Assembly (NCBI GenBank): GCA_035576045.1
Contig: DATLWY010000007.1
Coordinates: 1-63,350 of the forward strand
Source of the DNA: Gammaproteobacteria bacterium
GTDB taxonomy: Bacteria > Pseudomonadota > Gammaproteobacteria > UBA6186 > Azoamicaceae
Direction: 5' to 3'
Length of the DNA stretch: 63,350 nt
Shown: piece by piece, positions 1 through 4,918 of the stretch
How positions within the stretch are numbered: position 1 is the first letter of the stretch
How the letters are laid out: each line of letters begins with the position of its first letter
Position numbers and translations under genes: made by a program
Notes under the pieces: generated by a model
What the model saw: the letters and a program-made list of their open reading frames with translations, nothing else
Databases searched by the model: none
Told to the model about the DNA's origin: nothing

Positions 1-152
1 ATGAAGCCCAAGATGAAGATGAGATAGAGGATGAAGCCCCAGCGGAAGACAAAGCAGAGGATGAGGGTGAAGCGGAAGATCAAGAGAGGGCTGGAGATAA
101 AATAGCAAACGAAAGCAAAAAAAAGGATGAAGATACACGCACTGACGAATAA
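1..152 (+). CDS. 3' end of an ORF entering from upstream; extremely acidic C-terminal tail (hypothetical)
   Basis: Frame 3 is open from nt 3 to TAA at 150-152 and reads EAQDEDEIEDEAPAEDKAEDEGEAEDQERAGDKIANESKKKDEDTRTDE*. Too short to assign a family. Confidence 0.35.
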   Translation, partial: EAQDEDEIEDEAPAEDKAEDEGEAEDQERAGDKIANESKKKDEDTRTDE

Positions 153-228
153 AAATAATTTATTTAGCTTTTGAGGAACTTCTCTATACAAACCTTGCCT
201 AAACTCAATAAGGAAATTGAGTTTTTAG

Positions 229-1176
229 ATGGGGGTATGTATGAGCACCGAGGCGGAAAAGGCAAAGGAGGAAGCTAAAAAAGCAGCAGAGCTTAAAGCT
301 GCTAACGAGGTTAATGCCTCGGGAAATTCCACCGCACTTGTAGCGACACAACCCATACCTACACAGACCACATTAGAAACCAAAAACGAAGACGACCCTT
401 CACCTACGCCACCCGTAAAACCGTACAGCGAAAAGGGAGATCCTGATGCATCGAAAGGAAACAAGGATTTCTGGGAACGTTTTGTTGCGGCGATTTTTGC
501 AGTGATGAATACGAAAACTGGGAAGATGTTTGCGGCAGCTGGGGAGAAGCTTTGGGAGAAAACGCCTCAGTTTATAAAAAAACCGATTGTCGCTGCAAAA
601 AATTCGGCTGTTGGTGCTGTTAATAAGAAAGTTAATGCCGCAAAAGAAAATGTTGTTGCCGTTAAGGATGCTGTTAACAGGAAAGTTGTTGAGCCTATCA
701 ATAGAAAAGTTGTTGAGCCTATCAATAGGAAAATTGTTAGCCCTGTAAAGCGGGGCGCAAAGGCTGTAGTCGCTAAAAAAGATAAGGCTGTCAAGGCTGT
801 AGTCGCTAAAAAAGATAAGGTGGTTGGTGCCGCAAAAGAGAGTGTAAAAACGAAATTGAATTCTGCAGGCTCCGCTCTAAAAGAAGGTGCAACATCGGGA
901 TTGGATTCCACAAAACAGGGTGTAAAAGCGGCAGGCTCGGCTCTAAGTCATGCCGCTACTGCGGTAAAAGAGAAACTCTCTCGGCAAAAGGACCACACCT
1001 CGGCGAAAAAAGGAGATAATAGCTTTCAGCCTGCCCATGCTCGTCAGAGGAGCATGTCAAATTCACAACGAACGCCCCTCCTTAAACCGGAGGATCCAAA
1101 CGCAACTGCAAAACAAAAAGTAGGCGCAAGAACGCCTCCCCCATCCCCGCCCCGTAAAAACACAATGAGTCAATAA
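229..1176 (+). CDS. Hypothetical Lys/Ala/Val-rich repeat protein with MGVCMS N-terminus and proline-rich C-terminus; candidate secreted effector
   Basis: 315-aa ORF. N-terminus is MGVCMST. Internal tandem repeats are NRKVVEPI x3 and KAVVAKKDKAV x2. C-terminal RTPPPSPPRK. No enzyme motif recognised. An alternative start at M5 (nt 241) is possible. Confidence 0.6.
   Translation: MGVCMSTEAEKAKEEAKKAAELKAANEVNASGNSTALVATQPIPTQTTLETKNEDDPSPTPPVKPYSEKGDPDASKGNKDFWERFVAAIFAVMNTKTGKMFAAAGEKLWEKTPQFIKKPIVAAKNSAVGAVNKKVNAAKENVVAVKDAVNRKVVEPINRKVVEPINRKIVSPVKRGAKAVVAKKDKAVKAVVAKKDKVVGAAKESVKTKLNSAGSALKEGATSGLDSTKQGVKAAGSALSHAATAVKEKLSRQKDHTSAKKGDNSFQPAHARQRSMSNSQRTPLLKPEDPNATAKQKVGARTPPPSPPRKNTMSQ
676..825 (+). 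repeat. In-frame coding tandem repeats: 24-bp unit x3 (676-747), then 33-bp unit x2 (760-825)
   Basis: Read directly from the sequence: aacaggaaagttgttgagcctatc / aatagaaaagttgttgagcctatc / aataggaaaattgttagccctgta, then aaggctgtagtcgctaaaaaagataaggctgtc repeated with a 3' variant. Confidence 0.85.
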
Positions 1177-1278: not shown

Positions 1279-1932
1279 ATGCCAGCCTTTACCCCCGCTT
1301 TCAATAGAGCATTTAAGAATTTAACCAATTTAGCAGGTACTAGTCCAGAAAAACTGGTTGCCCTACATAAACACTTAACCCCTCAAGAGCGCTTCCAGGA
1401 TATACAACAAAAATTTGAGCTCTTTCAAGGACTGCAGTTTAGTTCGGAGGTTGTAGCCAAAATGACCGCGTTGTTAAAAGCGGTGAACCATACCGTTCAA
1501 TCCGATAAACTTGCTGCGAGCTTGCAGGAAATAGCCGCCATTCACGATGAGAATGAAAAATTTCGCATGCTTAAAGAAATATTTAAAGAACAGGAAACCC
1601 TAAAGGCTTTTGCACAGTGTTGGGAAATCTATCTCCAATCGCAATCTACTCCAATGGAAGAGATTGAAAAGCGCTTTGAAGAAGTCACTAAAAATTCCCA
1701 TGAGGGGATGAGCTCTTTGGATACACAATCGAAATTTGAGCTTACAAAGAGAATGGTGCAAGAGCTGATGAATATATTTTATGCGCTGTTCGATGCTCTT
1801 TTGATTTCAGCAGGGCATAAAAATGTTTTTGCGCCGGACAATAATGATGAACAAGGCGCAGGGTTCCGAGATCCTAAGAGCGGCCTTGTTTACGACCAAA
1901 GCGGTGTACACCCCGCCAACGCTGCAAGATAG
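1279..1932 (+). CDS. Hypothetical protein, predicted mostly helical, no recognisable domain
   Basis: 217-aa ORF with a GAGGAG-like RBS (ttgaggagatacacctATG). Convergent with dotA and followed by a strong hairpin. Confidence 0.55.
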   Translation: MPAFTPAFNRAFKNLTNLAGTSPEKLVALHKHLTPQERFQDIQQKFELFQGLQFSSEVVAKMTALLKAVNHTVQSDKLAASLQEIAAIHDENEKFRMLKEIFKEQETLKAFAQCWEIYLQSQSTPMEEIEKRFEEVTKNSHEGMSSLDTQSKFELTKRMVQELMNIFYALFDALLISAGHKNVFAPDNNDEQGAGFRDPKSGLVYDQSGVHPANAAR

Positions 1933-2045: not shown

Positions 2046-4457
2046 CTACCTCCGGCCTCGTGTTTGGGGGTTCTGAAGTGCTTTTTGAGCTTTTTCCTCA
2101 TCCTTTCTATCTTTGTTCTTCGTATTATGAGCACTCTCTTTTTGGCCTTCTTTGCTGTCCTTACTCGACTTAGCCAATTTGGCGCCCGTTTTTTCACTCG
2201 CTTTTGCATGTCCTGCTTCGAGGCCTTTTGAAGCTTGTCCCGCACCACTGTCTAAACCACCTTTCGCTTCTTTGACCATATCGCCTGGGTCGCCACCTTC
2301 AGCGGAGCCGCCCATCCAGCGCATAATCTGATTGGGCAAGACATAAATTAACGAAAAAGACTTATTCACAATCGAGGTTATAATGCCCACATAAAAACCT
2401 AAGACCGCGAGAATACTAAAGATACTCACCGCAGCGCCTTCGTTAATGGCAGGAATAAATCCAAAATTGATTAAGGCTATACCTGCTCTCAGTAAACTAG
2501 AGCCCAAAACAAAGCCGAAAATCATCAAAGTGGGCCTTAAGAAAATATTGGCTAAAATTGGCAGTGCCGAGCCAAGTTTTCCGAGTTCTTCTCCGCCGGG
2601 CTGAACTAATGCCAGTGCAATAATGGGAGCTGCGACGACGGCTTCTATCACTTGGATTATCCACCCGAAAGCAGTCATGGTAAAAACGAGATAAGGTACC
2701 AACGGAATGTAGATGCCAAGGGTTGCACCAAGCGTCCACAGCACAATGGCCAGTGAATAAATCATAGGCAGTATCGATACAAAGAGTAAGTTTATTGCCC
2801 AGGCTACGGGGCTTACGCAAGAAGCTGGAGATGCTATCAAGGAAATAAGAAAAGAGCTAATTATGGAGATAAATACGGCAATCTCACCCGCTAACATTAA
2901 AATACCACCAAACTGCCCAATGCCAATTAACGGATCAGCGACCCCTCCCGTAGCAGTCTTGCCCTCGGCAATACTTTGCACGTATTCAAGTATCGGTGTT
3001 TGTATGCCATCTTTAATGCCGTTCACGATCCCATCTAAAACCTTATCGCCTGTTGAGGCTGCTGACATGGCTAATCCATGCGAGGGGGGACCTGGGTTGC
3101 TTCGGTCGCTATTCCAATAGTCGAAACTATGGATGAGAGCGTTATTCATTTTTGTGAGTGTTGGACCCGTCGAGATGTATAGCTGGAGTGAAGACGCGCT
3201 AGTAGTATCAGTGGTTGGCCACGGTCCTGTTAGCGTATTATTGGCGGATAGATTACGCGGATCTATACGCTGCGGAACACCAGAGGACGCAGGCAGTTTG
3301 GCTGTCCCAGGCTTTGTTTCCTCATCTATGTTGGCCGTCGTAGCTCTCACCATTGTAAAATAATAACTCCCTGCATGGATCCATCCATAACTTTTAAGCG
3401 CTGCATAGTCCGTGTTAAGAGCCGAAGCAGGTTTAAGACGCTCTTCCCAATCGGGTGCGTCGTTAGCGGGTGCGGCGCTAACACCGGTTGCAAATGCTGC
3501 AATTTTGTTAATATACGCTTCTCCTGCCGCGCGAACATAGCCGGGATCGGGTGGGGCATAAGTGTTTTGATCAGGATTTGCCAAGATTCGTGCTGCTGCA
3601 TCTACTGCACTAAACATACTTTGTAATGCCTCTACTTTAATGCGGAGTTTTTGTTGTAAGGTTGCATAATTAAATGTATTAACGTCACCTTGGAGGATCG
3701 TGGTAGTGACTGCAAAAGACCCACATAAGCTCCTAAGTGGTTCAAGGGCGCCTTCTACACCAACATACAGAGTCGCTGTTTGTGTGAGCTGTGTTGCGGG
3801 TTTGGCGGAAGGGGCGGGTTGTGGGGCGCCTATGGTCGTGTGAATTGAAATCGATTTATTTTGCAGAGGGCCGGCGTCTGTGAGGAGTCCTGGTATTTCG
3901 TCATTAATAGCATACATGCAGGTGCTGGATTGTAAAATGCTTTGTGTGATATTATTTAAATCACCGGGTTTCAGTTGCATGCTAATTCCGCCTACAGTGG
4001 GTACCCCTTGCATTAATTGATCTAAGACCACATTCCAAACCGAGTTTGCAGCGCCTATGCCGTTTAAGACAATCCACATGACGGTCATTTGCACAACGGA
4101 GTAGCCAGAAGTGGGGCCTGGTACCATCAATAACATGCCCGAAAAGGCGCGAAGCGGCACCCAAAGCGACATTTTTTTCCCCATGGCTTCGCCTTCGCGG
4201 GCAGTATTGATAGTCGTCATCACACCAATATAAGAAAGCACTACGGCGCCAATCGTGACAATAATAAAATTAAATCGTTCAAACATAAGAGATAAAGTTG
4301 GATTGTTACCGCCACCTAAATTAATGGCGCCAACACTGCCACCAAACACCATGCCGAGATATTCTTGCGATTTATCGGTTGGGATTACCGAGAAAACACC
4401 TGCAAAAACTTCTCCGCAAATAAGACAAAAAAGGAAAAAAACAAGTCCTTTTTTCAT
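2046..4457 (-). CDS. dotA: Dot/Icm type IVB secretion protein DotA
   Basis: Large polytopic protein immediately downstream of icmV and divergent from icmW-icmX, the canonical Dot/Icm arrangement. N-terminal signal/TM is MKKGLVFFLFCLICGEVFAGVF, followed by SQEYLGMVFGG. There is a long soluble middle region and a C-terminal cluster of TM helices. The likely start ATG at 4457 overlaps the icmV stop (ATGA). The ORF-track start at 4505 is probably too long. Confidence 0.8.
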   Translation of the reverse strand: MKKGLVFFLFCLICGEVFAGVFSVIPTDKSQEYLGMVFGGSVGAINLGGGNNPTLSLMFERFNFIIVTIGAVVLSYIGVMTTINTAREGEAMGKKMSLWVPLRAFSGMLLMVPGPTSGYSVVQMTVMWIVLNGIGAANSVWNVVLDQLMQGVPTVGGISMQLKPGDLNNITQSILQSSTCMYAINDEIPGLLTDAGPLQNKSISIHTTIGAPQPAPSAKPATQLTQTATLYVGVEGALEPLRSLCGSFAVTTTILQGDVNTFNYATLQQKLRIKVEALQSMFSAVDAAARILANPDQNTYAPPDPGYVRAAGEAYINKIAAFATGVSAAPANDAPDWEERLKPASALNTDYAALKSYGWIHAGSYYFTMVRATTANIDEETKPGTAKLPASSGVPQRIDPRNLSANNTLTGPWPTTDTTSASSLQLYISTGPTLTKMNNALIHSFDYWNSDRSNPGPPSHGLAMSAASTGDKVLDGIVNGIKDGIQTPILEYVQSIAEGKTATGGVADPLIGIGQFGGILMLAGEIAVFISIISSFLISLIASPASCVSPVAWAINLLFVSILPMIYSLAIVLWTLGATLGIYIPLVPYLVFTMTAFGWIIQVIEAVVAAPIIALALVQPGGEELGKLGSALPILANIFLRPTLMIFGFVLGSSLLRAGIALINFGFIPAINEGAAVSIFSILAVLGFYVGIITSIVNKSFSLIYVLPNQIMRWMGGSAEGGDPGDMVKEAKGGLDSGAGQASKGLEAGHAKASEKTGAKLAKSSKDSKEGQKESAHNTKNKDRKDEEKAQKALQNPQTRGRR

Positions 4458-4918
4458 AGCTGATTTTTCCTTTTCTGAGGCAGTATTAAGCGACACCATT
4501 CCCAAACATTACACCCCAATTTTTTTTGAGATATTTGGAAATGCCAAAAGTGAAAGCGAAAGGCAAGCGATAAAGCATATAACGACAGCGAAATACAAAT
4601 ACCCATACCTGTCCAATTTTTTAGATGAGAGAGTACTATTGTGTAAATAAGGAGTGCCATTGCCATAAGCACAAAAAAAAGGGAGAGTTTCAGAAAGCGC
4701 TCGGATTGTTTTGTGACGGTTTCTGGAGAGAGCGCCATCCTATCGATGGCTTCTTCAAAGCTTTCGGGATGCTCGGCCACTTGGATGCTGAAAAGATTTT
4801 TTATTCTCTCCCAAAAATAGAGGCTTGAATTTTTAAGCGAGGCAAGATCGATCCAGCGATCAACACGCACATCTACCATGTGACCTACAAATTTCTTGCT
4901 CCCTTTCCAGAGTCCCAT
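4454..4918 (-). CDS. icmV: Dot/Icm protein IcmV (small inner-membrane protein)
   Basis: 154 aa with two hydrophobic helices (LSLFFVLMAMALLIYTIVL, GMGICISLSLYALSLAF). Sits directly upstream of, and translationally coupled to, dotA, and is divergent from icmW. Confidence 0.7.
   Translation of the reverse strand: MGLWKGSKKFVGHMVDVRVDRWIDLASLKNSSLYFWERIKNLFSIQVAEHPESFEEAIDRMALSPETVTKQSERFLKLSLFFVLMAMALLIYTIVLSHLKNWTGMGICISLSLYALSLAFRFHFWHFQISQKKLGCNVWEWCRLILPQKRKNQL

Follow-up and report, generated by a model that had tools for sequence, protein, structure and literature searches.

The icm gene cluster of Legionella carries, at a fixed position before icmQ, the hypervariable and non-homologous genes of the IcmR/FIR proteins, reportedly the subject of work by Feldman and Segal. 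Type III effectors of plant pathogens are documented targets of host N-myristoylation, and the host lipidation documented for Legionella effectors is prenylation and palmitoylation (GobX and LpdA are palmitoylated), not N-myristoylation (2016 review, PMC4951486). We describe here an open reading frame (ORF) at 229-1176 on the plus strand of a 63,350-nucleotide stretch of contig DATLWY010000007.1 (the window), from a gammaproteobacterium of the family Azoamicaceae. It lies among genes of a type IVB (Dot/Icm) secretion system, and an earlier note had proposed that it encodes a membrane-targeted effector with three host-style features: a Src/G-alpha-like dual-acylation N-terminus, a synuclein-like 11-residue repeat region, and an SH3-ligand-like tail. 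A myristoylated Dot/Icm substrate would be new, and the evidence presented here is against one. The combined reading that we favor on balance is that the gene is real, that it starts at ATG 241, that its resemblance to a lipidation signal is accidental, and that it encodes a membrane-associating cargo or partner of the type IVB system. The genome concerned (G000) is a 1.6-Mb assembly in 101 contigs, and was compared within a set of 41 family genomes that includes it; the family also includes genomes of 0.3-0.4 Mb.

The ORF comprises 315 codons from ATG 229, immediately preceded by an in-frame TAG at 226-228, and has in-frame ATG codons at both 229 and 241. Reading from ATG 229 gives MGVCMST, and if that codon is used the residues are literally those reported earlier, matching both the myristoylation-type pattern MG{EDRKHPFYW}xx[ST]{P} and the pattern G-{EDRKHPFYW}-x(2)-[STAGCN]-{P}, with a cysteine nearby. 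The main start, however, is very probably ATG 241, as judged from its ribosome-binding site and its orthologues. The Shine-Dalgarno (SD) box GGGGGT at 231-236 pairs at six positions with the canonical 16S tail, and the duplex energy available to ATG 241 (-9.8 kcal/mol) is reached by 2.2% of the 1932 candidate starts in the genome, as against -3.7 kcal/mol for the region upstream of ATG 229, a value reached by 39% of candidate starts. The AAGG or AGGA nearest to ATG 229 is 14-15 nucleotides away, a spacing at which SD-like 4-mers are rare; in the 179 genes with an unambiguous start they peak 7-10 nucleotides upstream. The bases ATGGGGGTATGT that encode 'MGVC' are the 3' end of an 88-nucleotide leader, within which GGGGGT is the SD box and ATGT the spacer.

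Comparison across loci gives a similar picture. Homologues that are only 28-35% identical overall (P0003 and those of the G007 and G004 loci) likewise begin MGVCMS, and the 15 bases ATGGGGGTATGTATG are identical among nine loci, with the exception of ATGGGGGTGCGTATG in one. Approximately 70-88 non-coding bases upstream of those 15 are equally conserved in the nine loci, and divergence sets in with the codon that follows the second ATG (AGC ACC, AGT GTC, AGT GCC, GCT GGC, GGT GTT). Eight of the nine upstream-ATG loci have zero synonymous variation in codons 1-5; the ninth (L042) keeps GGGGGT and has the spacer GTG CGT, so that Cys4 becomes arginine in the ATG 229 frame. Because the leader is as conserved as the 'MGVC' bases and synonymous variation is missing, the invariance of 'MGVC' is, on this reading of the alignment, a DNA-level property of the non-coding leader of which it is part, with no evidence of selection on the protein.

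Outside this clade the upstream ATG is absent. The G012 orthologue reads TTTTTAGAGAGGTGTATGATGGCT, i.e. TTTTTAG-AGAGGTGT-ATG-ATG-GCT, with a classical SD sequence (AGAGGTG) and a product beginning M(M)AIDPD. That of G001 reads ...TAGAAGGGGTGTGTATATG, i.e. TAG-AAGGGGTGTGTAT-ATG, with the box AAGGGG and a product beginning MSVPSPP. In G017, which belongs to another genus, the sequence is AAGGGGTTGCGTATG (AAGGGG-TTGCGT-ATG) and the product begins MAGNEEELKK, which aligns with the MAGNAEEVKR that follows Met5 in the JGI homologue; a fourth protein, P0014, begins MALDAD. Gly2 is missing in all of these, and because these four lack the upstream ATG and serve as outgroups, the sequences indicate that it arose secondarily within the SD box, by a change of AAGGGG to ATGGGG. 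A single A-to-T substitution at the 5' edge of the box in one clade would have created an in-frame ATG right after the stop codon, and the resulting four-codon extension would mimic a myristoylation/palmitoylation motif by accident.

We therefore favor ATG 241 because of the SD analysis, the orthologues outside the clade, and the Cys4 change in L042. The dual-acylation N-terminus claimed in the earlier note is not borne out, as SD energies, SD spacing and orthologues all favor initiation at Met5, an outcome that the note had itself named as incompatible with its proposal; nor are Gly2 and an acylatable cysteine conserved features of the protein, the first being absent from the four outgroup sequences and the second replaced in L042. 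Three observations weigh on the other side. The anti-SD is the canonical sequence, assumed, as the 3' end of the 16S gene is missing from the assembly; the upstream ATG is kept throughout the nine clade loci; and position 6 carries a small residue in each case (S, S, S, A, G), in keeping with what N-myristoyltransferase would need, but a small second residue is likewise usual behind a bacterial start methionine. Initiation at ATG 229, alone or to give a minor isoform, may occur. Gene callers disagree on identical DNA, starting at Met5 in P0001, P0002, P0006 and P0017 and at Met1 in P0003, P0004, P0005 and P0018.

Starts that fit MG{EDRKHPFYW}xx[ST]{P} are not uncommon: 9 of the 1936 candidate ATG starts in the genome do so, a chance level of about 0.5%. 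Other MGxxxS/T starts in the genome were considered as a shared effector signal and set aside: C41, the other pattern match with a nearby cysteine, overlaps a tRNA, and the starts on C73 and C75 lie 69 nucleotides from the contig starts and may be internal methionine codons of longer ORFs. Contigs C73 and C75 begin with near-identical sequence, and their large ORFs (from position 70 onwards) encode Gly/Ala/Val-rich products of 719 and 611 amino acids (from MGVTMSAT...) that diverge after approximately 200 residues; these may be paralogous polymorphic proteins truncated at contig edges. We also rejected 'MGVC' as a bacterial lipoprotein signal, since no n- or h-region of a signal peptide lies ahead of the cysteine.

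No other DNA of the locus is as well conserved as the leader that separates dotL from the ORF. Its identity across G000, G007, G004 and the Logan loci is 92-97% (92-94% between G000 and G007, G004 or the Logan contig, and 97% between G007 and G004), and in the same comparison ORF2, the gene 3' of the ORF, is 71-76% identical, the ORF approximately 62%, and the last 150 nucleotides of dotL 56-71%. The leader is single-copy, no second copy having been found in the genome; there is no Rfam match near threshold and no sigma-70-like promoter within it, and scans of metagenome and genome collections with a leader pattern brought up no locus that was not already represented. Folding predicts a structure in which the SD box is hidden, with an unfavorable covariation term (+1.57), and for this reason we do not claim an SD-sequestering structure. 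Two other candidates judged by eye were also discarded: a CsrA-type site with GGA in a loop, which G007, Logan and G012 do not retain, and a PmrA-type tandem site, of which there is a single half-site-like CTTAAT only. The hairpin and U-run at 203-226 may attenuate transcription.

The product is rich in alanine (15%), lysine (15%) and valine (10%), and Cys4 is its sole cysteine when read from ATG 229. It would consist, in order, of a charged N-terminal helix, a disordered Pro/Thr-rich linker, an aromatic/hydrophobic segment DFW..F...IF, an amphipathic repeat region, and a Pro-rich tail, and modeling predicts the 311-residue protein to be largely disordered or long-helical. An AlphaFold2 (AF2) model built from 11 sequences has low-confidence helices at 110-176 and 182-252 with disordered ends, and its mean predicted local distance difference test score (pLDDT) of 47.5 is too low for a meaningful fold search. 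Conserved blocks are the charged N-terminal helix, T-T-L, GD.D..KG..FW..F with a short hydrophobic stretch, KKP, AG.AL..AA..V.E..S, GDN..LP, and the Pro-rich end. W78 in Met5 numbering (Trp82 from ATG 229) and D67 are invariant or nearly so in alignment A3, and a hydrophobic 15-mer occurs at a similar position (around residues 85-120) in several positional counterparts.

The repeats named in the earlier note are present, although not all copies are exact: the third NRKVVEPI-type unit is NRKIVSPV and the second KAVVAKKDKAV-type unit is KAVVAKKDKVV. Its 11-residue periodicity is significant (lag 11, 28 identities, equalled in 1 of 2000 shuffles) but is not the dominant one, lag 8 being stronger (35 identities, 0 of 2000 shuffles), and the period varies among homologues: 8 and 11 in G000, 11 in the JGI homologue (five 11-residue units), 12 in G004 and G007, and none in G012. 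Proline breaks the repeats every 8-12 residues. The central region would be a set of expandable tandem repeats of 8, 11 or 12 residues according to species, and homologues range in length from 175 to 402 amino acids because this region expands, changes period or is absent. Amphipathicity is well supported, the central 150 residues having a mean hydrophobic moment of 1.14-1.19 at 98-100 degrees compared with 0.68 +/- 0.10 in shuffles (z approximately 5), with no excess at the beta-strand angles of 160-180 degrees. The likeness to synuclein, LEA proteins and apolipoproteins drawn in the earlier note goes no further than this, as no LEA, apolipoprotein, synuclein or YtxH model matches. In Pfam, neither the ORF (at E <= 0.1) nor its homologues P0002, P0005 and P0007 (at E <= 0.01) match any family, be it LEA_4, YtxH, Apolipoprotein, Phasin or another; there is no NCBIfam match, and the family profile has no match among PDB sequences. 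The tail motif RTPPPSPPRK exists as described and fits both the class I ([RK]xxPxxP) and class II (PxxPx[RK]) patterns, but it is kept exactly only in P0002, the nearest relative, the other orthologues being merely Pro-rich at the C-terminus. One of the three host-style features is therefore unsupported (acylation), one is real but generic (amphipathic repeats), and one is present but poorly conserved (PxxP).

Table 1. Features at the 5' end of the window (coordinates in nucleotides).
Feature	Coordinates	Strand	Basis or remarks
dotL/icmO 3' end, acidic C-terminal tail ending ...DEDTRTDE	3..152	+	Synteny with L005; truncated by contig start
Intercistronic leader, 88 nt	153..240	+	Weak hairpin 203-221, U-run 222-226, SD box
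Upstream in-frame ATG, overlapping 5' edge of SD box	229..231	+	Absent in G012, G001 and G017 orthologues
SD box GGGGGT serving ATG 241	231..236	+	-9.8 kcal/mol against CACCUCCU, 4-5 nt spacer
Most probable coding sequence, 311 aa, MSTEAEK start	241..1176	+	Start called for window protein P0001; orthologue N-termini align from Met5
Aromatic/hydrophobic segment FWERFVAAIFAVMNTKTGKMFAAAG, preceded by conserved GD.D..KG	469..543	+	Best conserved protein block
24-nt (8-aa) tandem repeat, 2.6-3 copies: NRKVVEPI, NRKVVEPI, NRKIVSPV	671..742	+	
33-nt (11-aa) repeat, two copies KAVVAKKDKAV / KAVVAKKDKVV, 28 nt exact duplicate (760-820)	760..825	+	
RTPPPSPPRK, residues 301-310, C-terminal tail	1129..1158	+	Read from sequence
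ORF2, 217-aa all-alpha protein	1279..1932	+	Homologues in 6/41 family genomes (sequence search)
dotA, convergent with ORF2	2046..4505	-	TIGR04346 DotA/TraY 297 bits (cut-off 100); NF033886 366 bits

Protein identity among orthologues is 18-53%, indicating very fast evolution. A profile search of 1.84 billion representatives recovered nine proteins at E <= 1e-10, every one of them from a single narrow group, along with a few weak multi-stretch matches to unrelated repeat proteins; one weak match, P0013 (E = 2.7e-5), belongs to the YtxH family and resembles apolipoproteins below threshold, and the match is probably compositional. By sequence search the ORF is present in three of the 41 sampled genomes including G000, all of one genus, and inspection of the slot after dotL in 30 genomes adds G012, G001, G009 (weakly) and G017. 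In other genomes the slot is empty or holds unrelated Pro/Ala/Ser-rich proteins that appear to be disordered, a few of which have a hydrophobic stretch in a comparable place. The post-dotL gene of G006 (L016, 2183 onwards) encodes a 401-residue protein in which several polyproline runs of the PKAPPPP type recall ligands of profilin, WH1 or SH3, and is a candidate for another host-facing protein in this slot.

The Dot/Icm neighborhood reported in the earlier note is confirmed. The gene order is icmS-dotM-dotL-ORF-ORF2, followed by the convergent dotA, with icmV, icmW and an icmX-like gene further 3' in the window. A syntenic 23.6-kb contig carries dotB, dotC and dotD on the minus strand, followed by icmS, dotM, a gene for an 852-residue coupling protein, the ORF, ORF2 and dotA. 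DotM of the syntenic locus L005 matches NF033890 (392 bits), and the 852-residue protein matches TrbC/VirD4-type coupling proteins and is therefore DotL/IcmO. The remainder of the G000 dotL gene was located by a DotL C-terminal search at the end of contig C68; the assembly break falls within the repetitive acidic C-terminal tail of dotL, such that the gene body ends C68 and the last 50 codons open the window. The genome thus encodes a type IVB system, with DotA, IcmV and IcmW in the window and DotM and a DotL-type coupling protein in the syntenic loci and on C68. DotA, DotL, DotM, IcmS, IcmV and IcmW are present in family genomes; IcmQ (PF09475) was matched in none of the 41, although control genomes were equally silent, so its absence is not shown.

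An ORF2-like gene lies directly 3' of dotL in G003, G010 and G048 (L024, L026, L027), and ORF2 is therefore the more conserved dotL neighbor in the family and the ORF at 229-1176 a variable insert. The AF2 model of ORF2 is all-alpha (pLDDT 67); the protein has neither a Pfam match nor a PDB sequence match, and a Foldseek comparison of the model with the PDB, in which an LvgA-, IcmQ- or adaptor-like fold was sought, gave no match at E <= 0.001. It is a candidate lineage-specific part of the coupling complex. In G001 (L010, 8-1303) a gene for an insertion sequence-type transposase sits just upstream of the ORF2 homologue and separates it from the dotL-ORF pair approximately 4 kb away. A 10-bp inverted repeat spans the ORF stop codon (1167-1191), and a 15-bp GC-rich stem between ORF2 and dotA (2004-2040) looks like a bidirectional terminator.

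By inference from genomic context, composition and evolutionary pattern, the ORF product most likely serves the type IVB system in an accessory role, as a cargo or partner that varies from lineage to lineage. The ORF would be co-transcribed with icmS-dotM-dotL, and its product would associate peripherally with membranes through its amphipathic and aromatic helices instead of through host lipidation. What remains of the effector proposal, a protein that would associate with membranes, belong with the type IVB system and perhaps be its substrate, is a reasonable guess. That the protein is a translocated substrate is a tentative suggestion from the sequence, with a prospect somewhat short of even; this is slightly favored over a bacterial-side partner because of its patchy presence, the turnover of its repeats, and its Pro-rich linear motifs. 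A role unrelated to the type IVB system is unlikely. Type IVB C-terminal signals have polar or small residues and an acidic E-block approximately 10-20 residues from the end. Judged by eye in alignment A1, the C-terminal tails of G007, P0004 and G012 have D/E clusters (approximately -6 to -15), and those of G000 and the JGI homologue are basic and carry no acidic residue over their final 24 positions. This net basic G000 tail, with no obvious E-block in those 24 residues, may tell against a substrate.

The strongest competing explanation is that the protein assists the coupling complex from the bacterial side, as a hypervariable partner, chaperone or regulator that is encoded in the icmS-dotM-dotL operon, acts at the inner membrane with DotL, DotM or ORF2 and is not translocated; in its evolution it would parallel IcmR and the non-homologous FIR proteins that replace it. 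Its gene directly follows dotL in the same orientation across an 88-nucleotide gap in which no promoter-like site lies, has a tightly conserved translational leader, and holds a fixed position despite extreme sequence turnover; the short hydrophobic/aromatic helix suits peripheral membrane binding, and non-canonical parts are plausible in a family in which IcmQ went unmatched (a search with no positive control). However, several genomes of the same genus lack the gene in this slot and have an ORF2-like gene adjoining dotL, so it is not a core component; no similarity to IcmR, LvgA, DotY, DotZ or any solved structure was detectable in a PDB sequence search with the family profile; and Pro-rich linear motifs, like repeat expansion, are seen more typically in proteins that face the host. 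We regard this explanation as somewhat unlikely.

Less well supported is the model in which translation starts at ATG 229 and, following methionine removal and Dot/Icm delivery, the host myristoylates Gly2 and palmitoylates Cys4, anchoring a repeat- and PxxP-containing effector to host membranes. The myristoylation-type pattern is satisfied, the ATG and glycine codons are kept in all nine clade loci with S, A or G at position 6, four gene calls start there, the bacterium has a type IVB system, and host lipidation of injected effectors is established (PMC4951486). Nonetheless, ATG 229 has no usable SD sequence of its own and lies upstream of, and overlaps, the very strong one of ATG 241; the outgroup sequences lack the codon and the glycine, and L042 lacks the cysteine; the conservation is a DNA-level one that extends over the entire non-coding leader, and a synonymous change is missing from eight of the nine loci; and the motif occurs by chance at roughly one candidate start in two hundred. 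We consider this model improbable. The narrower version, in which alternative initiation would yield a minor Gly-Val-Cys-Met-Ser... isoform that the type IVB system delivers and to which the host adds myristate and palmitate, a newly evolved Src-like anchor, is by the same sequence evidence very improbable. A general stress or membrane-protective amphipathic protein of the LEA, YtxH or phasin kind, lying beside the secretion genes without a functional link, is scarcely credible: it would accommodate the significant helical amphipathicity, the 8- and 11-residue repeats and the weak match to P0013, a YtxH-family protein with apolipoprotein-like repeats, but that match is probably compositional, the family has no Pfam match to LEA_4, YtxH, Apolipoprotein or Phasin, it is confined to genomes with this dotL context, and proline interrupts its repeats.

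These data provide a caution, in that a G-rich ribosome-binding site that begins with ATG reads "MG..." and can mimic a eukaryotic lipidation motif, and it is on exactly such DNA that automatic gene callers differ. What remains is an undescribed and very fast-evolving amphipathic repeat protein associated with the type IVB coupling-protein operon of an uncultured, probably protist-associated gammaproteobacterial lineage. Should it be a substrate, it would exemplify an effector expressed together with the coupling protein; should it be a DotL partner, it would be a lineage-specific part added to the coupling complex.

Comparison with known systems places the likenesses and differences as follows. 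Translated from ATG 229, the ORF resembles the SH4-type dual-acylated N-termini of Src-family kinases and G-alpha-i in having M-G-x-x-x-S/T with a nearby cysteine, and the organism resembles those that deliver N-myristoylated effectors (AvrRpm1, AvrB, AvrPto and HopZ of P. syringae, and XopE and XopJ of Xanthomonas) in having a protein-injection system and a probable life in eukaryotic cells. It differs in that Gly2 of the ORF requires a start codon without a ribosome-binding site, in that the bases of the motif serve the following ATG as its SD box and spacer, and in that the motif is absent outside one clade, with Cys4 lost in one lineage within it. With alpha-synuclein, group 3 LEA proteins (LEA_4), exchangeable apolipoproteins (PF01442) and YtxH (PF12732) the ORF shares Lys/Ala/Val-rich tandem repeats, a helical moment and one 11-residue pair, but it differs in having no profile match, a dominant period of 8, and proline inside the repeats. 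RTPPPSPPRK nominally satisfies the class I and II consensus of the SH3-binding PxxP ligands in bacterial effectors, but it is kept in the closest relative only, and such patterns are common in Pro-rich disordered tails. The ORF differs from the IcmR/FIR proteins of Legionella in following dotL and not preceding icmQ and in being missing from its slot in some genomes, but it is like them in its fixed position in a type IVB cluster, in its extreme turnover, and in being small, helical and amphipathic.

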